A stretch of 62,435 bases of DNA, filler included, from Hausera hauseri (Eukaryota), in NCBI GenBank assembly GCA_046269625.1. It is 11 parts of 11 records of this genome, joined end to end, with 100 filler letters (N's around TTAATTAATTAA, not from the genome) between each part and the next. Parts side by side here need not be neighbours in the genome. Positions count along the whole stretch, not along the records: positions 42,010 to 46,117 come from JBJURY010757319.1; positions 46,218 to 55,987 come from JBJURY010293280.1; 9 more parts are not named here. One strand, 5' to 3'. Every line of letters starts with the position of its first letter. The first letter of the stretch is position 1. Below the pieces are notes generated by a model, which was not told the DNA's origin, made no database searches, and saw only the letters and a list, made by a program, of their open reading frames with translations. The translations under genes and the position numbers were made by a program. Below, piece after piece: positions 27,505 through 53,240 of this stretch.

Positions 27505-28112
27505 TTCGGCGCACAGGTAGACAGCACAGAAAAATAGTCGTTTCGGAACAGGTAATCACAAGAATAATGAGAACCAGAAACAAGAGGCCAAACATATAAT
27601 ACATGTATGTCGACCATATGTTGAGAATGTAAAATAACTGAATATACAACCAAATGATAAAACTCCTACCATAAGAATCCTGGGAACAGCACGCGTGTAA
27701 AGCGACTGGTATGGCATTTGTCGTGGAATCTGATTAGTTTTTACTGGTTGAGAAATTGGCGCCTTTTTGAATCCGATATATGCGCCGACAATGCACAATG
27801 GAAAGCTAATCAAAAAACAGCTAATAGACCAACAATTGCACCAAATTGTACTGCAGCTGAACTTTTACTGACCCATAAAACAATGTTCAGAATGAAAAAT
27901 ACGCCAAATACAGATTCGGTGCAAAGAAACGCAGTCAATATTACATTACTTTTCCACTTTTCACCGTTCATCATTTTACAAAGTCGCGATGACCAATAAC
28001 GGGCTGGTGCTTCAAATAAAACGTAGAAAACGATTCCACAAGTGGCAAACGCTCCTCGGTTTGCAGGGCTAAGGAATCTGAAACAACACACGAAATATGT
28101 CACTACTGTCAT
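27505..28112 (-). pseudogene. TM9SF2: Transmembrane 9 superfamily (TM9SF2/EMP70-like) internal fragment, fused in frame to PRMT3
   Basis: FLSPANRGA, GEKWKSNVILTAFLC, SSAAVQFG, PVKTNQIPRQMP, FGCIF, ITCSETTI; frameshifts; no introns. Confidence 0.88.
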
Positions 28113-29570
28113 GAGAGTCAACTGAAGTCCACGATTTTCTCTCATGTGCCGTTTAACCGAAATAGTCCCCGACAATGTCTCTCCCTCGGTCAATGGTATT
28201 TCTTCGGCAAGCAACAAAATCGTTTGCTGCCAATGAGTTGGCGTAGCTTGCGGACTTGTGGAGAACATTACTTGTTTCTCCGTTACCGTGTTAGGCGCGA
28301 AGAAAAACGTATCGAAATAAGCGACAATTGCGCCAACTTTGCCCGATCGCATATCAATCAATGTGAAATGTTCATTTATAGTTTGAGTACAGACGTTGTC
28401 ATTGGCAAAGGCCAAGTCCTGGACATCGTAATTACGTATACAAACTGTGTTTGTCATTATATCATTTAAGGGAACTATATCAACGATGACTTCTTTCGAT
28501 ATGTGACTTTTCATATTTTCCATATTGATTCCGTAAACATCATCCCAACAATCGATATTGTTTTGACGATATGTTGCCAAATTAGCACCGACAATGTTGA
28601 GTGTAAAATGGCGAGGAAAAACCAACCCACTAACAGGTCTTAGGTACCGTTTGCAAACATACAAAACTGATTCCAACATGGATTCATATATCAAAAAATA
28701 ACCCATCCATTCGGAAATTATAACGTAAACCTTTTCGCAATGAATCTGGATATCTTCAAGTCGTCCGTGTATCAATTTTACTTTATCACTGAAACCATTC
28801 TTTTCAACAATAGCCTTTGCATGGTAGATAATATCAGCACAATCCACACCATAATCGTGTTTCGCACCAGCCCTAGCAGCAAACATACTGAGAATACCGG
28901 TACCACAGCCGATATCAAGAATAACTTTACCATTGAAGTGCTCACAGCAGATTTCTTCATTGAATCGTCTGTATGATTCAGTTCTAACTTTATCCTTAAT
29001 AATAATATCGTGAATTGAATAATGAGAATATCCGCTAAAATAAGCAATATCCTCGTCACCCAACTTCTTAATTATTGAAATATCACAGAAAACATGTGAA
29101 TTCTCCACTAAACTGTCTTTATCCATTAATTCCATCAATTTCTCTTGTAGATTTGATATCGTCTGCTCATACAATTTTATTTGGGACTGCAATTCACTGA
29201 TATTCTCAGAAGTTTCTTGAAATAATGCCTTACCATAAATTGCACTAAAGTCACAGAATAATAAGCTATCGTTAGCTAAGTAAGGTTTTAGATATTCCTC
29301 ATCTTTCCAATGCCCAGACTGGATTTCGTCAACAGTTATTGAAAATATTTTTTTTCTTAAATAGTTTACAAATTTTATCCAGTCATATTCATCTTTAATA
29401 TTTGCAACGTCTAGTATATGCTTGATATTTGTGTTGTGGTCTCTAAATACATGATCAAGCATATTCATAGCATTGTTAAATTGCTGATCATAACATAAGC
29501 ATAAGTATGAATTATCAACGAAATCGTCATCGCAAATACTACCTTCGCTAGATAAATCGCAATCGGACAT
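28113..29570 (-). pseudogene. PRMT3: Protein arginine methyltransferase 3-like, near full length, intronless; natural stop replaced by the TM9SF2 fusion
   Basis: N-terminal zinc-finger-like region and YDWIKFVNYLRK, YLKP..ND.LL, YFSGYSHYSIH..KDKVRTESY, VILDIGCGTGILSMFAARAGA, IISEWMGYFLIYESML, STSPQATPTHWQQT; several conserved positions substituted (HDIIIKD, KVYVII). Confidence 0.9.
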
Positions 29571-29646
29571 CTGATGTATTTGATTCAAATTTGGATTTCT
29601 AGACTGGAGTTTGAAAATTCAACGTTGACCAAAGTTTAGAGGTAAA

Positions 29647-40200: not shown

Positions 40201-42044
40201 TACAGTCATGGAACAGAATGTTGTTATGTAATCTCGCAAAGATACATCTACTTGTATAAATGGTGATGAAGGCTGAAAAATCTGGTCTGTATTTGCATCG
40301 GAATTTGGCTGATAATGTTAATAGAACTTTCAAAATTTATCGTATAGTTTTTAGTATCGATTTTGGCACGACAATGAACTGCGTAACGAGTGGGATACTA
40401 CTTTCTGATGTGTGATTATTTGTACGTTTAATAGCACGATGTTGTCTGCAGTTGGCCAGAAGATCGTAGTGAGATAGGAAGTCTAAGCCTAAAATTTGAG
40501 TTTGAGTATCTGAACTATAAACTTCCAGCGAAGGGTATCTGGAAAATGTGGTAATGTAAAAGAGATTTCAGTGGTAACGGAAATACGTAGAGCCTGTCCA
40601 TTGGTGGTGAAAAGTTTAGTGGAAGTTGGATAGAGGACAAAGGTAAGAGTGAAACAGCTGCACCTGAGTATATTAAAAATGTGGTATGATGTGGAGATTT
40701 CGTCAGTGTAGCGTCAAAAAGATGGCATTTGTGTAGTTACTGCTGTTGAGTTGTATAAGGTGGCCATTGCCAGAATTTTCCGCAGTATCTGGCGGCTCTA
40801 TACGTTTTTTATATTAGAAGAATTAGACATGTCTGATGTAAAGCTCGCGTCCAGGTAAGCACCGTTTGGTCATTTATTTAAACCTATTATTGTAGACGCA
40901 ACATCGTTCGCGTCAAAATGTTGTGTGTAAAATCTGCAACAAAAACAACATTTTTTGGCATTATGGTTGAATCTAGAATGGTAATAGCATACTACTTGTC
41001 GCGCAGGTGATTGAGCATGTCTAGATTTTACGGATGATTGTTTGCTTCGATCTGCGCTGAAACGACTATGACGCGGCAAAGTTATCGCATCCAGTTGATT
41101 TAAAGTAGCCAACATGGCCTGGTGTAAAGCTGCATTTTTGGCTTGCACTGTTTGTACATGGTTTACTAATTTTTCTGTATTATTCGATGTAAATGTTGAT
41201 TGTAAGGTTGAAATAAGTGTTGGTGCACTACTGTCATGAAAAATTTCGTGGCTTTTATCTGTCAGCTGAACCAATTTGTCTAGCGTCGCAGAGTTCTCAA
41301 TCACAGTGAGGAGGAAGCGAATTTGGATGGATGAAGAGGATAAGAAATAGCGTCGCAGTAGATCAGAGTTATTTGTTGGTGGACACTAAGGGGTTTAATT
41401 GAGAAAGGATGTGCGCAGAAATTCAGAGCTTTTGGTTACCAAGGACGTTCTTCTGAAGTACTCCTGGGTGATTGTGTCAATTAATGGCTCAGTTAATTTT
41501 GAAAACACTAATTACAATAATAATTGGACGACCTTTTTGGGCGCTCGTACGTAGCCTGAAAGTAGTGAGGTTAAAGCATTCCAGTTTCTGTGCAGTAACA
41601 AATTCTAACAGAGAATTCAAAATGGCTGAACCCATAATTAAATTGTTATAACGTAAAATAAATGGAAAATTCTATTCGGGCGATAGTGAACAGCGATTCG
41701 TAATAAAATTGTATTTGATCAAGTCACGGATTAACAGTAATTCAAAAAAAGGTTTGAAAAACTGAGAAAAACCAAAATATTGAGTTTACAAAATGGTTGA
41801 TATTGATCAAGCTGTACAAGATGGATTCTGAAATTGATACTGGAATAAAAAAATTATGGCCGAGATTTCTTTGAGTATTTAAACAATTTTCTTTTTTTGC
41901 ATTCAGAAANNNNNNNNNNNNNNNNNNNNNNNNNNNNNNNNNNNNNNNNNNNNTTAATTAATTAANNNNNNNNNNNNNNNNNNNNNNNNNNNNNNNNNNN
42001 NNNNNNNNNTTCAGTGTCCAAAATTTCTAATTCTATTTAAGATA

Positions 42045-42266
42045 TTAGGATTTCGGATTCTTGTCTCTTTTAAAAGAAAAAAGTTTGCGCTTTTTAACTT
42101 TTGGTTGATTAAGAAGATTTTCTCTTTGTTGCTTTAATTCCAATTGATGTTGGATCTCTTTATTAATTGCGTGTCTTGCAAAAAAGAACTCTAAACGTTC
42201 TTGAAAAACCCAAAGGTAATATTCAAATCTGATTTTTAAACGTTCCCAAAGAACTTTGATGCACAT
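42045..42266 (-). CDS. Small basic ORF (73 aa) just downstream of the LTR and PBS-like site
   Basis: ATG 42266, basic NLS-like tail PKVKKRK; ~75 nt past the LTR end. Confidence 0.4.
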   Translation of the reverse strand: MCIKVLWERLKIRFEYYLWVFQERLEFFFARHAINKEIQHQLELKQQRENLLNQPKVKKRKLFSFKRDKNPKS

Positions 42267-42340
42267 TAAATTTTTAATGTATTTTGTCTTTTATTTGTTC
42301 CCTTGTTTTATTTTGGTTCTATTCAATTACTGAAACCAAA

Positions 42341-43570
42341 TGTTGAAGGAAAGAATTATTTAAACTTAATGTTATGAATTTATTACTTTTAGGTATCGAA
42401 CGTTGGCCTACTATGGCTTCGGCCGTTCACGCTGTTAATGAGAGGGATGTGAAGTTTATTAGTTAAAAAAGAAGGTGTAAATAACAACAAATAGTTTTTA
42501 CACACAAAACAAAAATATTTACCACGATTCAAATGGGAATCTAACCCTGAAACTTGTATCGGAAGAGAACTTCTAATACTGCACAATAACAAAAATAATG
42601 GCACTTTGGCTCTGCGTTGTAAATGATGAGACTAAGAATTGATAGCAAATTTATTCAATTCTTTTCAAATAGAATGGAACCAATGAAGCGAATTCAATAG
42701 ATCCAAATAAAACTACCAACGGGAGGGAATATCGACCTCTTGGAACTAGTTTGAAACTGATTATAAAATCAAATAGGGGGAAATATCAACCCCATAAAAC
42801 AGTAAAATAATCATCATCAATTTTCAATTATTGTTCGATCTGATTTATTTTAACGTTCCCTTTTATACAACTTTATCGCATGAGGGAGTTAACTTCTATT
42901 TTTAGAAGCTTGTAATTTCGTAAAGTTATATCTGGGGGTGTTCTTTTTATTTCTACAAATAATGTGGGGGTTTTTTAGAGATTTTTTTTGTTCATAAAAG
43001 TTTTTGTGGTATTAAAATTTTAGGTGTGGGAGTACTATCTTGATGTAGCGTAGTTGTTGGTAATTTAGAGTTTTTAAAAGTTGGGGGTGTTTTTTACTAC
43101 ACAAGAGTACACTTGTTTGTTTGGTTTACAAATGTTTATTGCAACTTACGCATTTTGTATCAATGTACTATGCACAAAATAAGCGATAACTTAGCAAATT
43201 ACTTAGTGCCTTAATCACTGTTGTTAGTGATAAATCAATTTAGCCGTAGTTTCTACTTTAGGTTTTTAACCGTTTATTTCATGGTAAAGACTACAATCGT
43301 AGTACCTAAGTCTTATATTTTTAGTTTATACTTGCAGCTAACAATACTGATTCAACACGAATTTTTTAGACATAGTGTAATTCACCTACTGTACAAACTT
43401 ATCTTTTTCGCAACATCATACAAGTAGCAATTTTAGTGCTAATAATTGTTACAAAATCGTGTTACACATTACAAGCTATTTCAATTCAATTCTTGTTCAA
43501 TAATATTAAGCAATTTTTTAATTAATCATATGAAAAGTTATGCTTTCCTCAACATCTTCAACATCCAACA
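42341..43570 (-). repeat. Probable complete LTR (~1.2 kb) TGTTG...CAACA
   Basis: Preceded by PPT AAGGGGGGAAGGA (43583-43571); ends CAACA followed by TT-TGGTTTCAG (PBS-like); internal TATAAAA (42867-42861) and AATAAA; alternative end at 42370. Confidence 0.65.
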
Positions 43571-43766
43571 TCCTTCCCCCCTTAAAGAAAATTTTTCGTT
43601 TTATTTCAAAGAGAAAAATTTTAATACGTTTAATTAAATGAGGTCGATTTTTCCTCTACATAAAAATAAAATACAGAGTATATAAAACATGAACATGATG
43701 AATGAAAAAAGATGAACAGAAAAAATAATAAAAAAAAATATACACAATGTTTTTAAATTAAGTCAT

Positions 43767-45839
43767 TTATATCTGTATTGTAGCTCGTACTTCTTTCTGC
43801 AGTTCCATTTCTGTTTCCTTGATTACCGGAATGTGATATAAATTTTCCAGGATGTATTTGTCTTTAGTGGCAAATAAGATCATCCGGAGTTTGTTTTTAT
43901 CCGTGTCTTTTAATACAAGTGGACGACCACCCCTTGGTTTAGGGAGAGGTACCACATCCAACTGGATTGGGATTGGTTGGAATGTGAGAATTGGTTTGTG
44001 ACTGAGTTGTTTTACTGTTTCCAGATTTCCTCCGATTAGTGCCAGGTGAAGAGTGTTGTATATCTTGTTTTTATACACGATGCCAATCGGGATACCAAAA
44101 TTTTTATTTGGAATCACTAGACGGTTATTTGTTATACTTGAGACGGATTGTGGTACATATTGAACGTTTATACATTGGCTAATTTGTCCATATAACAGCA
44201 TGGATAATTCTGTTTGTGGTTTCGGCTCAGTACTTGTTAGTATGTTATCTGTATTATTTTTCAATTGCTCTATTGGAGATGGTTTTTTATTCTGGATCCG
44301 TTCGTATTTATAATTTTCATGATACTTTGATGGAATTTTTGATAGACTGCCATAGTCAATTACATTATTAGCAGGCGGCTTCCAATCGTAGGTCCATTTC
44401 TCGTTTGAACAGGAGTTTTCTATTTTGTTATAGATTTGAATGATACTTTGAAGAATCAATTCTGCCGTTTTTGGAAAACTGTAGTCAAAGCCATATACTG
44501 TGGGCATCTGTGTTAAATTTGTTTTGAGCCCTTGTTCTTGAAACCTTTGCTTGGTATTTTTCGTTGCCAATAGATCCAATTCTCCAAATATGACTTCTTT
44601 TGGGATTCTGAGTGCTTTGAGGATGGCGCTGGTGTTGGCGCTAATAACAATGTATCCAAAGAGATATCGTATTATCTCCTTTCGAACTTCGTCTTCCTCT
44701 GGTGATTGTTGGATGATTTGCAATGACAACCCATGGATATGTTCGTTTGTATTTGAAATTTTTCTCCTGGGATTAATAAAAGACTGGTAGATAATTAATT
44801 GAGTTTCGTCAGCGATAATGATTTCTATAGGTAGAAGATCTCCATTGGAGGCGTAAGCTAATGACACTGCCAGAAATCGGTAATTATGGATTGTTGTTAG
44901 TCCATAATTATAGATATTTTTATCCGGTTGTTGGTAAAAAATAGGCATGTTAAACTCGGCTTTAATATCAGTTGTGAGACATGATTCTATGCCGATAATG
45001 ACTGGTGTTGCTAATATTCGGAAATATAGATTGGTTTTCAGGGCTATTGCCTTAATCTTTATGGTGTTCTTTGGTGTCATTATCGCAATTTTTTCAGGTA
45101 ATCCGTCATAGTTATCCGATTGGGCTCGCATCTGAATTTTTCCTTGACTTAAATGGACGAGGATTTTCTTTGTATTGTCCTCCATTTGTATTAGTCTAGT
45201 TAGATCCACATTGTATAGAGGATTTTCGTATTTCAGTAACCGGAATGAACGATCCGAAAGTGTGTTAGTTTTTAAAGTATTGTCCAAATATTTACATTCA
45301 GGGTAGAAAATGTCTGTGGACTCATCGGTTAGCTCTATTAATTTACTGTAAAACTTTGCAGAATAGAGATTTCTGTTGGTGTCGTATCTTTGGATAAGTT
45401 TTTTGTCATACAACTCGGTTAAAGATCTATTTTTGATCCTGCTTTTTTCGCTTTTCTGAAAGTTTTCTTGTACTGTACTTTGCAATCTTCTTTGTTTTTC
45501 GTCAGGTAAATCATTAAAGGTAAAACCTTTTCGTCTGACTTCCGTCATAGTGGTATACATCTTTGCGATTGGAGTTGAGATAGGTCGCGATAAAATTCCT
45601 CTGTTCATTGAATAACTCAGATTGGGAGTTTGGAAAGTAAATGAACAACTGGTAGTTGGATGTATCATTTGTTGTTGAGGTGGTATAACCCTTCGTTTAG
45701 GGTTAGGGACCACAGTTTCGTTTGAATCATCTGAACTGGCTTCGTCTTCGAACTTATCCAAATCTATGCTGATTTCTTCCGGATCATTATCCTTTTTTAC
45801 AGATTCTGGTTCATAGACTGGCGTGTTTAAGAAATCCAT
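43767..45839 (-). CDS. Intact 690-aa retroelement accessory ORF with an inactive DEDDh (REX4/ISG20-like) exonuclease domain
   Basis: Uninterrupted frame; polypyrimidine+CAG acceptor (45844) just before the ATG; FLAVSLAY..IIIADETQLIIYQSFINPRRKISNTNEHIHGLS..SPEEDEVRKEIIRYLFGYIVISAN..LKALRI matches the fold pattern without the catalytic acids; ends ~190 nt before the PPT. Confidence 0.75.
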   Translation of the reverse strand: MDFLNTPVYEPESVKKDNDPEEISIDLDKFEDEASSDDSNETVVPNPKRRVIPPQQQMIHPTTSCSFTFQTPNLSYSMNRGILSRPISTPIAKMYTTMTEVRRKGFTFNDLPDEKQRRLQSTVQENFQKSEKSRIKNRSLTELYDKKLIQRYDTNRNLYSAKFYSKLIELTDESTDIFYPECKYLDNTLKTNTLSDRSFRLLKYENPLYNVDLTRLIQMEDNTKKILVHLSQGKIQMRAQSDNYDGLPEKIAIMTPKNTIKIKAIALKTNLYFRILATPVIIGIESCLTTDIKAEFNMPIFYQQPDKNIYNYGLTTIHNYRFLAVSLAYASNGDLLPIEIIIADETQLIIYQSFINPRRKISNTNEHIHGLSLQIIQQSPEEDEVRKEIIRYLFGYIVISANTSAILKALRIPKEVIFGELDLLATKNTKQRFQEQGLKTNLTQMPTVYGFDYSFPKTAELILQSIIQIYNKIENSCSNEKWTYDWKPPANNVIDYGSLSKIPSKYHENYKYERIQNKKPSPIEQLKNNTDNILTSTEPKPQTELSMLLYGQISQCINVQYVPQSVSSITNNRLVIPNKNFGIPIGIVYKNKIYNTLHLALIGGNLETVKQLSHKPILTFQPIPIQLDVVPLPKPRGGRPLVLKDTDKNKLRMILFATKDKYILENLYHIPVIKETEMELQKEVRATIQI

Positions 45840-46241
45840 GTTGCTGAAAAAGAAGATAAAGGTATAGCAGGTCACATTTAATGGCTTGCTAGAAGGGTAG
45901 GTGGTTACCCTTCGATATTTTACTGGTCTGATATGTTGATGCAAATCTATTGGTTTAGATTTGCTGGTATGTAGTGTGTGCATTAATACTATTGTTTTAG
46001 TTGGTGTGTATGATTTGGTGTGTTTATTTTTGTTATTAAGTATTTTATCCCTTTCAACGTCGACTCTCCACTCCACACATGTTAGACATAATAGATGAGT
46101 TGACAATAACAAAGTTTNNNNNNNNNNNNNNNNNNNNNNNNNNNNNNNNNNNNNNNNNNNNTTAATTAATTAANNNNNNNNNNNNNNNNNNNNNNNNNNN
46201 NNNNNNNNNNNNNNNNNTTTTAGTTTAACATTTACTTTAAT

Positions 46242-46849: not shown

Positions 46850-49800
46850 GTACGTGGACATGAAGGTGGACATATCGGCGAAAACAGCAAAGCAGTTGAA
46901 GGATGTACCCGCTAATGTGCGTAACCGGTTGGAATCAGAGGTGGCCAATTTCCAACAACAACACTACAGCAAAGTGCAATATTATGCACTTGCAGAATTT
47001 GCAAATCTGCAGGGTGACAGGGAACAATGGTACCTTTCTCATCGAGCCGTACCATACTCTGAGGATTTTATTGCCGATTTAGGCGAAAAGCTTCACGAAA
47101 AAAATCGCCAGCTACACCGAAAAGGGAGGTGATGGCGAATTGTAAAGATTGTCACTCTCGACTTTATTCTGACCAAGACGAGTGACATGATTTACCTGTC
47201 CGGACGTTCATTCATACCAACACCTGCATCCTTGAAGCAGTCTCTGGCGGTAGTGAATGTACAAAATACTAACGACGAATAATGCTTTATTTACAGCATT
47301 CTGGCCATATTGAAATATGATCGTGTCCAGACATCATGCAAATTGTCCAAAGCAGTACAGTAAGTATTTCTCAGAATTGGACTACGACGAGTGTTGGATG
47401 CCGATGAAACACAAAACCATTCCGGCATTTGCACGACGTAATCAGACACTGGTAGTCAACGTGTTCCGGTTCAACACAATCGTAGAATCCTCACGTGGAC
47501 ATAATTTGCCGCAGTCGAAATCCTATTGGACGCCCAGTAAATTTGTTGCTGTTGGAGAATGGAGAAAAGTTTCATTACACGGCCGTGAACAATTTGGACA
47601 GATTGTTGAACATGGAGCATGACCAGTTCATCAAAAAGCGTATACGGCGCAAATGGTGTTCCGTGTGTCTGCATGGATTCCGATCAAATGAGATATGGGA
47701 AAAGCATGTGGCGCTGTGCAGACAAACTTCGTAAGGAACCACAATGTATGTTATGCCAGTCAAAAAGGAGTTGAGATTCAGTGACTGGTCAAAAACGGAC
47801 AGTCCGGCATATGCGGTGTATGCCGATATCGAAGCAATTCTACCACGGCTCAATGTATTCGATCAAAAGCACGTTCTAATTTCCGTTCATATGTTGCTAG
47901 TACCAATAAAGGCCTCCGGGCAACCGCGGTATTACGTTTTCCATGGTTGGAACTGTGTACGTGATTTCTTGCAGCAGGTGAAACCATAGTGGAAACGGAA
48001 ATCGCGCCGTGGTATCGCAACAATTGCAATAAGCCATTGGTTTCGGCAGACGAATATCAACCGCTGCTTTTCGCTGTCACTGATGAATGCTATCGTGCCA
48101 CAAAATAATACCGTTTGATGCACAGGAACGGCTCGTACTTGCGGTCGATACTTGCGAGCAGCATGCAATTCATGCAATTCAGCAAGGCGAGTGCGACCAT
48201 TCCTGCCGGTGATCTTTCATAATTTCCGAGGCTATGATTGTCACCATATTCTCAAATGGGACATTAACGGCTTTCCATACTGGGATCTATGCATAATCTC
48301 AACGACAATGGAGAAATACCTATCGCTGTCGGCATGAGTAAACCGATTTCAGGTACGCTTCCTTGATTCATTGCAATTTCTCAATGAATCATTGGCAAAG
48401 CTGGTAAATGCCTTATCAGAGGTGCCGATACCACCGACGCAGTTCCCTGCATATATTGCACGCAGCAAATGCATATTTCCATATGACCTTGAAACATCGT
48501 ATGAGCGACTCCGGACAGCAGAGGAATTACCGCCGTGATGGACAGGTATCGTAGAAGATGAATATCTGAGAGTACAAGAATCTTGGACAGAACTTGGCTG
48601 TAGAGACATGTTAAATTACATGTGCCAGTATCTTAAACTGGACGTGTACTTATTAGCCGACGTGTTCAAAGCATTTCGGACCAAAGCGCTGGCGGAAGAT
48701 AGGTTGGAGCCACTCAACTTTTATTCCATACCTGCATTGAGTTAGGCGTCAGCTCTAATGTCGCTGGATCGAGACATTGAGCTGCAGCAAGACCCGGAAA
48801 TGTACCAAATGTTTGATGTCAGTATTCTCGGCTACATGACATTTGTCAACAAGCATCAGGTCAATGCTACCGATATCACATCACTGCTGTATATTGATAT
48901 TAATAACCTGTACGGCTGGTCGCTTTCGCAACCCTTGTTGTACGGTTCATTTGAGTGGGTAGTCGACAGACAAGATCTGGACCACATAATTGTCAATCTA
49001 CCACGAGCAAACATAACAGGCTCAGTCGGATACCTGATGGAAGTCGATCTCGAGATACCGGATGAGCTGCATGACGATTTGGACGATTTACCGGTCGCAC
49101 CACTTAACCAATATCCGCCAGGCTCAAAAGTGAAGGAACTGCCCATGACTCACGAACCGAAGCAGAATTACGTGGTCCACTGGCGTTTGCTACAGTTCTA
49201 CATGCAACTCGGTGTACGCGTCACACAGCTGCATCGTGCAATCCGATTTTCTCAGGCTCACATATTCAAGGCGTACATAGATGGAAATTCGACGTAACAA
49301 GCCGCAGCTTGTACAAAGTTCGAAAATTACAACTACAAGCTGAAAAACAATTCCCTGTACGGAACAACAGTGGAGAATCTGAAAAAGCGGCTTAATGTAC
49401 GCCTATGCAATAGCGAAAAGCGGTTGGTCACGTACACAAGTAAGGCACAGTTACGGCTGACAATGCACATTGCCGACGGATTGGTTGCGGTGCTGCTAAA
49501 CATGGAAGAATTCGTTCTGGACCGGCCAAGTTACATCGGACAATTGGTATTGAACCTGAGCAAGTTGAGGATGTATGAGATGCAGTATCGCGACTTGGTA
49601 CGTTACCGGCAAATGTTTGACGGCTGCAATATTGATATAATTAACTGTGACACAGATAGTTTTTTCCTGCGGCTGAAAAACGTCAATCACGAACAAGTGC
49701 TGCAGCAAATGATGGCAGACGGATTACTGGATACGTCCAATTACCCACAGAATTATCCATTGTACAGCTACGCCATCACAAACAAAATCAGCTGCTTCGA

Positions 49801-50089
49801 GGATGAAAGTGAAGGTCGGGTTCAGTATCGGGAATGCATATTTTTACGGCCAAAATGTTATAGCCAAAGGAGTTCAGTTGACCCAGACGGAAATAAACCA
49901 TGGTAATTATCGCCGTGCCTATGAAGGAGGACAATCAAAACTGTTGTGTCTCAAACAATCATCCGATCAATTGATCTCCAGCTGTATACGGTGACCAATA
50001 CAAAAGTCGCTTTATCATGCAATAATGATAGTCGAAAATGGGTGGGGCGAAATAAGAGTTGGGTGTACGGATATTGGAGTTTGATATAA
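46850..50089 (+). pseudogene. Polinton/Maverick-adintovirus type protein-primed DNA polymerase B with an endonuclease VII-like insert
   Basis: CFIYSILA, CSVCLHGF, YADIEA, AACNSCN, FHNFRGYDCH, RFLDSLQFL, KCIFPYD, YLKLDVYLLADVF, YIDINNLYG, KLKNNSLYG, CDTDSF, LRPKCYS, AKGV; multiple stops and frameshifts. Confidence 0.9.
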
Positions 50090-51099: not shown

Positions 51100-53240
51100 A
51101 ATGCCGCAAAATTACGATGGAACTAAAAAGCCGTCGAAATTATTTTGGATGTACATGGTCATTGTATTCGACAAATAGACCCGAAAGCTGGGCGTATTCT
51201 TTCGGTTTATTATTACAAAGATACTGAAATGATTTCCAAAGTGTCCGATGTCAGTTACGTGTTTATTATTCGGATGGATTTGGTCGATGCATATGTTCTC
51301 TGTCCAAAACCGAGATGAATTCTTTTGTGTAGCAGCCGAAAAAGCAATGAACAAAATCGGATGTACATTACACGAATTTAAGATCCATTGTCAAAGGATT
51401 ATTTTCTAGAATATTGGATGGGTAAATATAAACAAGATGAATACATCACTTCACATGCGGAATTGTACGTTCAAAAAGTGGTTCCTCACAAACATGGCTC
51501 AGACAATCCCATACAGAGGCTGCTGTGTTTGACAGAAACATGTCTTGTAGAATGAGATCCAGAAACTTATATCCTCGTTACTCTAAGACCGTTGTGCGAT
51601 ATATTTGCCTTAATTCCTAATCCAGAACAACCGCAAAAATTCATTATCGAATACGTTCAAGGAGTGGCTAGAACATACTTTTCTACAGATCGAGATTCAC
51701 GTTTATCATCTTTACCTGATGGTGCTCGTTCAAGCGGTAATCGCGATGAATGTGTTAAAATGAAACCCACCGAACGTTGGTATCGATTTGGTCCGTTTAT
51801 TGTGGCAGTTGAAGAAGAGGTTGAATCGCGGCATATGAAAATGATCCAACAAAAACCGGGGACCTTCTGCGTGTCAGACACGCTCCAAGAAACACCCGGT
51901 GGAATGAGCTTCAGTGAGGCGGTCAACAGATTCAATGCCAACATACCATACAGTGGACTATTGAATGTCGTTACACAAGAAGGTCTGTTTTCGAAAAATA
52001 AAGCAAGATTGATAAAAGGAGCTTTGGCATCACTTATTAATAGAGAATGCAATCAATCTGAGATTTCAGCACACGAATCAGAAGCGCAGTTTCATGCCGT
52101 AAGACGGTTGACAGCTTCGAAAGCTGATTTCCAAGCATTTACACAAATAAATAAAATGCGCGAAACTCTTGGCAAGAAAGTCTTTCTGGCACTTAGTAGA
52201 AACGATGAAGCCGTTGCTCACTTTGCCATTGATATAATCAATTCATTGATACAACCCATGCATGAAAACCATGATATACGACAGGAACAACTGAACAAGG
52301 ACAGTATTATGTCAAGCGATGAGTTTTTAGAAAGTCTCCCGGACATGTTTTCGCTTCATCTGCTACGTGAAACCGGTGCTTTGGTTATCAGTGCAACGCT
52401 GGACTTTTTGACATTCACAGTTTGCCCATCATACTGTGAAACGTCCAAAGGTGACAGCTTTGATACTTTGCTAAAATCCGAGTATGGCAACTGTGAAAGG
52501 TGTATGTCTGATCATCCAAGCTCTGATTGATGAAGCGGATTCGGAAGCTGGAGATTCATTGCAAAGACTTGCATTAGCAGAAGGCCTCTTACCGCAGCAT
52601 TTATTGAGTTCATAGTTTGCAAGAAACAATGATCATCGTAGTCTGGCATTTCGTCAACTCAATCTTCAGCTTCTTTCGTTGTGGCTTTCTGGAAATATCG
52701 AAGCCAAAGACTTTTTACGACGCGTTTTACCATTTGGTTTGACTTTGAACTTGGACAGTACCAATGAACCACCGGTGTCATCGATTGACTACTTGTTCGT
52801 TAGAGATGATCTGGAAACGGCACGGGTGCATTGTTTGGAAACCCAAAAGAAAAATGCCGAAGCACTAAGAGCATTAGAAAAGAAATCAGATAACCTTTTG
52901 ATGCACTGGCGAATAAAAAATTGTCTCAATATCAAACCGATTCGTGATAGAGATAAAAAACCAGTCTGTTTGAGGAAGCGACGAAAGCGCATAAAAGCGG
53001 TAGATAATTGGAAGCTGTTCTTTTATCGCTTCTGTCAAGATCATGCAAAACCCAATTTGATTTGGAATATCTAGACCAGAAAAGAATTTAGAGAAGCTCT
53101 GGAAAAAGAAATAACGGAATTTAAGCGCGAACGAAATTTCTGTACTCAATTAGAATCATCGGAAAAAACTGATGATCCAGACAATGTTGATGAAAGTTCA
53201 ACCGAAATGAACGAACAAACGAATACCAAACATAACAGAT
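51100..53240 (+). pseudogene. DNAJC13: RME-8/DNAJC13 N-terminal fragment, intronless
   Basis: RLLCLTETCLVE*DPETY..TLRPLCDIFAL, YFSTDRDS..DGARSSGNRDECVKM, FNANIPYSGL, QPMHENHDIRQEQLNK, LRKRRKRIK..NWKLF..DHAKPNLIWN; stops and frameshifts. Confidence 0.92.

Follow-up and report, generated by a model that had tools for sequence, protein, structure and literature searches.

The window analysed here, 62,435 nucleotides of the Hausera hauseri assembly (869 Mb in 909,086 contigs), contains a 690-codon open reading frame which is an added 3' accessory module of a Ty3/gypsy element, not a replacement of env. The encoded protein is predicted to carry two folds, that of a DEDDh exonuclease and that of an AlkB-like barrel, both without their catalytic residues. 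We give about an even chance to the reading as a whole, in which this double pseudo-enzyme, in a spliced and a polyprotein form, would bind the RNA or cDNA ends of the element and shield them, shielding being its most tentative part.

The module within a giant Gag-Env-Pol polyprotein

Positions 42010-46117 of the window represent the whole of a 4,108-base contig (C757319), both ends of which lie within the element. Its genes mark the host as an animal. The reading frame at 45839-43767 of the minus strand was recovered intact, in agreement with the first-pass annotation, and no longer frame exists anywhere in the window. The same annotation treated it as a free-standing frame in the env position. 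However, the ATG at 45839 does not open the frame, which is open already 92 codons upstream, at the start of the contig. The signal peptide and membrane anchor of an Env protein were looked for in the 690-aa product and not found, as no 19-residue stretch reaches a hydrophobicity of 1.0. The N-terminus is acidic (15 D/E versus 3 K/R among residues 1-45) and is followed by PKRR at residues 47-50; these traits too had been read correctly at first pass. Pfam yielded no significant match to the 690-aa protein. The features of the contig are listed in the table.

Features of the module and of the 3' LTR (window coordinates)
Feature	Positions	Strand	Remarks
3' LTR starting with TG, truncated by the end of the contig shortly before the terminus	42010..43570	-	from sibling comparison
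Conserved 73-aa small ORF in the 3' part of the LTR	42045..42266	-	conserved in many copies
Conserved covarying hairpin in the LTR	42398..42428	-	16 copies
Polypurine tract	43571..43583	-	purine run before the TG-initiated LTR
690-aa accessory ORF: pseudo-AlkB, pseudo-DEDDh and C-terminal domain (predicted)	43767..45839	-	folds; dN/dS 0.083 versus nearest full-length copy
Beta-rich conserved C-terminal domain, residues 543-680 (predicted)	43800..44213	-	pLDDT 82.5; best Z 2.9; dN/dS 0.06
DEDDh fold, residues 316-485 (predicted)	44385..44894	-	catalytic positions A324, S326, I406, K457, I462; ISG20 Z 16.4
AlkB/2OG-Fe(II)-like barrel without HxD/E, residues 138-290 (predicted)	44970..45428	-	Ofd2 Z 11.2
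Acidic N-terminus, predicted disordered, ending NPKR(R), NLS-like	45690..45839	-	N46, P47, K48, R49 invariant in 17/17
Open in-frame spacer linking the ORF to the upstream polyprotein	45840..46117	-	contig starts inside; junction open in 14/15 loci
Predicted splice acceptor, pyrimidine tract and CAG, CTTTATCTTCTTTTTCAG	45844..45861	-	4 nt before the ATG

Elsewhere in the window, an intronless PRMT3-like frame with an EMP70/TM9SF piece at its end adjoins a Gypsy element (27810-29618, minus strand). Broken frames occur at 48746-49906 and 51556-53074 of the plus strand; we take them to resemble a protein-primed DNA polymerase and an RME-8-like host gene.

Of the 4,956 candidates in the protein search of the genome, 64 were scored as matches; leaving aside the match of the window copy to itself, they are 45-91% identical. 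Stops fall within the matched stretch in 33 of the 64 and are absent from it in 31. The alignments used the 17 full-length copies free of stops. The nearest relatives of the window copy have protein identities of 85% (full length) and 91% (partial). No near-identical sibling was found in the assembly, where collapsed repeats could hide one, so that recent movement of this copy, and with it the earlier description as a recently active element, is unsupported. On the other hand, the multicopy nature of the module and the presence of pol upstream were borne out: integrase precedes the module on 10 contigs, and the sibling copy L056 has the PR-RT-RH-IN order of Ty3/gypsy elements.

The layout of the complete element emerges from several copies. 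One sibling frame is open for 2,180 codons upstream of the module ATG. On contig C66660 the module homologue terminates a 2,851-codon frame in which the last part of a fusion glycoprotein is present together with protease, RT, RNase H and integrase. The next unit on this contig and a unit on C466577 provide the front of the element in one frame of more than 3,000 codons, in the order Gag with a zinc knuckle, a long helical region, a ubiquitin-like domain, the fusion protein and Pol. The fusion protein is a gB-type Env (Pfam PF24664, E 3e-65 to 5e-85). In a sister family (C22230), a single 3,763-codon frame runs from the zinc knuckle through Env and Pol to the module. The whole polyprotein is estimated at about 4,600 aa from the overlap of two units, no unit of the window family being complete end to end. 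Since the 690-aa frame is in frame with Pol and the true Env lies between Gag and Pol, the frame is a 3' accessory module; the annotation was right that it is not Env, and wrong in the position assigned to it. The ubiquitin-like domain between Gag and Env occupies residues 1081-1148 in L076 and 1132-1201 in L077. The neighbouring units on C66660 have RT proteins 99% alike, yet about one third of their synonymous sites differ.

Between the integrase and the module there is a second membrane protein of about 340 aa, with a signal-like start and a membrane anchor (L059:4700-5810, minus strand; residues about 1690-2045 of L056). It has no match in Pfam or the ESM Atlas, and may contain a fibronectin-III-like motif. 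Both anchors were located in 15 loci, and in 14 of these an uninterrupted common frame connects the anchor of this protein with the module. In one sister family a stop codon intervenes between Pol and the module.

The family has the LTR features of Ty3/gypsy, namely TG...CA termini, a polypurine tract and a tRNA primer site. As annotated (about 190 nt), the purine tract and the TG-initiated LTR follow the stop codon closely: the tract with TGTT lies about 197 nt past the stop in the window copy and 149-317 nt past it in 30 of the 32 copies examined. In siblings the LTR terminates a few bases past a conserved motif. The window contig closes with this motif and stops 6 nt short of the terminus seen there. 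Thus the LTR spans from 43570 to beyond 42010, and not only to 42341, where it had been thought to end. The CAACA at 42341 followed by TTTGG was considered as an LTR end with a primer site (a tandem copy); the sibling LTR ends rule this out and make the CAACA internal. Nine other copies have a visible LTR end, of which five continue into a primer site and four into unrelated flank. In L024, L054, L057, L059 and L060 a primer site comes after the 3' LTR, the arrangement of tandem units with a shared LTR. Host tRNA-Lys(TTT) genes are complementary to one primer site; for a second one no matching tRNA gene was found.

The LTR also contains a small ORF with an aromatic/amphipathic start and a basic end, to which Pfam has no match. 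In its first 41 codons, 13 copies have 673 synonymous single-base codon differences versus 273 non-synonymous ones. The LTR hairpin has a 4-bp stem with compensatory changes at all 4 pairs (16 copies) and a GAA-N5-AGTA loop; Rfam gave nothing credible for it.

Two predicted folds and the loss of catalytic positions

The AlphaFold2 model of the 690-aa protein, for which the input alignment included four distant relatives, has a mean pLDDT of 75.8, with residues 1-99 disordered. The top Foldseek rows are the PolC exonuclease, ISG20L2, ISG20, DnaQ and ERI1 (E 2e-6 to 1e-5). In VIA-align, residues 319-484 match ISG20 (Z 16.4, rmsd 2.7, 160 aligned), that is, the predicted model has the RNase H-like DnaQ fold. 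Residues 138-290 match Ofd2 (Z 11.2, rmsd 2.9, 134 aligned), ALKBH6 (Z 10.8) and OsALKBH1 (Z 10.2), and the double-stranded beta-helix of AlkB and other 2OG oxygenases is recognizable in the model, a Z of about 11 being moderate and common to many 2OG barrels. The REX4/ISG20-type exonuclease fold proposed at first pass has therefore held up in the fold search, whereas the dead barrel in front of it and the unmatched C-terminal domain had been missed. When residues 515-690 were folded alone, two of the five models were confident (pLDDT 82.5), and no structural match above Z 2.9 was found for this domain, which does not show that the fold is new.

At the sequence level, a profile including the distant relatives matches ISG20L2 with E 9e-9. 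The profile of the genome's own 17 copies alone reaches only E 0.39 against a DEDDh chain, and hence it is on the distant relatives that the link to DEDDh proteins hinges at the sequence level. Searched singly against PDB sequences, the protein had a best E of 0.18; the ESM Atlas had no usable match for the frame, and neither the alignment nor a search for longer forms gave a match in word-based protein searches. ISG20, ISG20L2 and REX4-type enzymes, about 12-14% identical to the module, are thus its best matches by both fold and profile. However, the module keeps none of their catalytic residues.

The ExoI DxE position corresponds to A324-V-S326, with Ala, Thr or Ser at the first site and Ser or Thr at the second in all 17 copies. 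The ExoII Asp corresponds to I406 (Ile, Met or Leu in 17/17), and the ExoIII His and Asp to K457 and I462; an alternative alignment one residue earlier still offers no His or Asp. None of the five DEDDh catalytic positions is restored in any of the 17 stop-free copies. The loss had been noticed at first pass, with ExoI read as SLA; it aligns to AVS, two residues earlier. The barrel is similar in this respect: the HxD/E of the iron triad HxD/E...H is absent from the window protein and from 12 of the 17 copies, and in the other five it occurs at unshared or loop positions.

Four distant proteins were found in a representative protein library. One of them (P0004) and two relatives keep D-A-E, D and H..D, match the Pfam family RNase_T and share the barrel preceding the nuclease. 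P0004 has the two-domain layout of the window module, and the two can be aligned along 314 columns (prob 97.3). Scans of metagenomes and viral contigs found no relatives. The genome search with P0004 gave at least 100 scored matches to the two-domain module in sister families (L083-L108); 26 loci were fetched, and 19 ORFs with the anchor motif, one per contig, were aligned. None of the 19 has either ExoI acid; Ala replaces the first Asp in 18, and one keeps an ExoII Asp. The shared Ala suggests that catalysis by the DEDDh domain was lost once, anciently, in a module that was then long retained.

By its substitution pattern the module is under strong purifying selection. Comparison of the window copy with C903235 gave dN 0.075, dS 0.90 and dN/dS 0.083 over the whole ORF, and by region 0.23 in the N-terminus, 0.08 in the barrel, 0.035 in the dead nuclease (the lowest of six regions) and 0.06 in the C-terminus; these values rest mainly on one unsaturated pair, 8 of 136 pairs being usable over the whole ORF. 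Constraint on the upstream spacer is weak (median dN/dS 0.61), yet the spacer stays open. In the dead exonuclease 38 of 170 positions are invariant, including the stretch PR-x-x-I-x-N-x-NEH-x-HG, which we take to be the substrate-side loop. That the domain is a decaying vestige of a once active nuclease is scarcely credible: the missing catalytic residues and the stops in 33 of the 64 scored matches would fit decay, but dN/dS of 0.035-0.08 contradicts it, as does retention of the module across families about 20-30% identical to the live relative.

Another possibility is that the DEDDh-like domain has acquired a non-canonical active or metal site, formed by N363, N365, E366, H367, H369 and K457. 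These residues are invariant in 17/17 copies. However, sister families differ there (e.g. NFDSHxTG and a different ExoIII), and no metal-binding acid occupies a canonical position, making such a site improbable.

A candidate splice acceptor and probable exchange of the module

The sequence immediately upstream of the module ATG, CTTTATCTTCTTTTTCAG, looks like a splice acceptor, as was noted at first pass. We defined the motif as at least 11 pyrimidines in 14 followed by YAG 1-20 nt before an in-frame ATG. It is present in 35 of the 46 copies that reach the module start (51 loci examined), in a scan that took the best site in the interval searched and is biased toward matches. As a control, 376 in-frame Met codons in ten long frames were considered; the motif precedes nine of them, namely 8/8 homologous Met codons versus 1/368 others. 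Ser, Arg and Gln codons, in differing phases, all preserve the AG, so DNA rather than protein is conserved. In sister families a T-rich AG precedes the module at a constant phase, with weaker pyrimidines (8-12 of 14), and it persists in the family with a stop between Pol and the module. No conserved donor was found in the leaders and LTRs. Contigs of run X1, possibly from the source sample, have no joint at the acceptor and provide no evidence either way. Given the conservation of the acceptor compared with control Met codons, a separate spliced form of the module, made besides the polyprotein, is likely.

The acceptor does not interrupt the frame, and the module may accordingly act solely as a protease-released part of the polyprotein in the particle; the acceptor-like motif would then be a by-product of the Phe-rich sequence. 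The open junctions and the sibling frame of 2,180 codons agree with this. We nevertheless regard it as improbable, because the AG is kept under different codons and phases, the motif is rare before other Met codons, and one sister family interrupts the frame between Pol and the module.

The module cassette appears to have been swapped between lineages. Where pairs of copies have unsaturated synonymous sites in the gene for the upstream membrane protein (0.33-0.40), those of the module have reached saturation (0.71-0.82, with 45-49% identity). Trees of the module and of the upstream region for eight copies reject each other (AU p far below 0.001), a discordance that could partly reflect chimeric contigs in the fragmented assembly. 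C237851 is 89% identical to the window copy in the spacer and 94-96% at the LTR end, versus 52-66% in the ORF. In run X1 the contig depth reaches the thousands on either flank, compared with 18-350 across the greater part of the ORF and U3; a single additional peak lies close to the NLS. This is summed contig depth, qualitative and possibly from the source sample. The module and U3 vary together between conserved flanks, and U3 is divergent even in copies with ORFs as similar as 85%.

The high diversity of alleles flanked by conserved sequence would also fit a module that limits the element or benefits the host through copy-number control, exclusion of rival elements or an antiviral decoy, and accessory domains of retrotransposons have been proposed to serve the host (PMC6338049). 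However, the module stays inside multicopy LTR elements, with no domesticated single copy among the loci read, and this explanation seems very improbable.

Possible role of the module and known systems

The absence of the catalytic residues of both folds, combined with strong constraint, points to binding rather than cutting. The ancestor may have been a nuclease joined to a non-catalytic barrel, the nuclease then losing catalysis; the dead module would have been kept under strong constraint across deeply diverged families, for which binding without cutting would be the simplest reading. Non-catalytic binding of nucleic acid by the module is somewhat more likely than not. The spliced form would be soluble and carry an NLS-like signal, and we infer a nuclear location for it; the read-through form could travel in particles. 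Element RNA or cDNA ends bound in this way may be shielded from host nucleases and silencing, shielding being tentatively favoured as the purpose of the module. Unlikely is a wider version, namely a virus-style counter-defence common to a whole clade of enveloped Gag-Env-Pol retroelements, in which a reader of RNA ends and base marks derived from two dead RNA enzymes, both spliced and nuclear and particle-borne, hides the element from host decay and small-RNA silencing, and is traded between lineages as alleles in an arms race.

The main rival to shielding is transactivation or a protein decoy. Here the dead folds would be scaffolds for host proteins, and the spliced nuclear form would be a transactivator, with the acidic N-terminus as activation domain, or an antagonist of host defence. 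In this it would resemble accessory proteins of complex retroviruses or poxvirus C16. The N-terminal domains of vaccinia C16, a viral 2OG-like barrel, are among the fold matches (E 5e-4), the N-terminus is acidic and predicted disordered with an invariant NPKR, and the module and U3 vary together. However, U3 diverges between copies with ORFs 85% alike, so the module and U3 are not a tightly coupled pair, and the strongest constraint falls on the exonuclease-like domain; this alternative is unlikely.

Exuperantia, a DEDD-derived RNA-binding protein, matches the model with Z 9.9. Maelstrom and EXD1 are likewise DEDD-derived (PMC5408684). Exuperantia and Maelstrom may serve as a model of how a binder could work, as they keep the DEDD fold without canonical catalysis. 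However, both are host genes with folds farther from the module than ISG20, and there is no sign that the module descends from them.

Each ingredient of the element has a precedent: the bdelloid DEDDy ORF3, the orchid AlkB and the Burro polyproteins. The bdelloid LTR retrotransposons Juno and Vesta have an ORF3 that is DEDDy/RNase D-like with intact DEED residues (PMC5408684). As in these elements, a DEDD-superfamily frame lies at the 3' end, whereas the module considered here has a dead domain of DEDDh/ISG20 type joined to an AlkB-like barrel, and continues the reading frame of Pol; in the module no DEDDy domain with intact residues was found, its best matches being DEDDh with the residues lost. 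Orchid Ty3/gypsy elements carry an ORF for an active AlkB-like m6A demethylase close to plant AlkB (PMC9289625). The 2OG-oxygenase fold in a large Gypsy element is shared, but the barrel here lacks HxD/E and is joined to a DEDDh domain.

In the planarian Ty3/gypsy elements Burro/GYPSM1, a huge polyprotein contains Gag, a ubiquitin/SUMO-like domain, Env in frame between Gag and the protease, and RT-RH-IN, and accessory domains may be separate ORFs or parts of the polyprotein (PMC6431247). In the family described here, too, a single ORF places Env in frame after Gag and before Pol, and a ubiquitin-like domain is present, a likeness of gene layout. The extra domains of Burro are MATH, BIR, BCL2-like and ankyrin, with no nuclease or AlkB module named in the available text (PMC6431247); none of the four was found by Pfam in the long ORFs scanned. 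GAG-ENV-POL errantiviruses with a gB-type Env occur in Nematoda, Bryozoa and Platyhelminthes, with the same gene order and class of fusion protein as here; their main text mentions no exonuclease, DEDD, nuclease, ubiquitin or accessory, and the supplements may list related elements (PMC13524379). No description of a dead AlkB-plus-DEDDh module in an LTR element was found in the literature covered, which was mainly open-access.

The family resembles a complex retrovirus in its giant polyprotein, second membrane protein, small LTR ORF and conserved double pseudo-enzyme. For LTR retrotransposons of animals the usual description is gag-pol-env, and accessory genes are few. As relatives with live sites have the same two-domain layout, the switch from nuclease to binder is testable on natural proteins. 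Should the module indeed block silencing or the decay of RNA, an animal LTR element would here encode a counter-defence at the protein level, which to our knowledge is rare.
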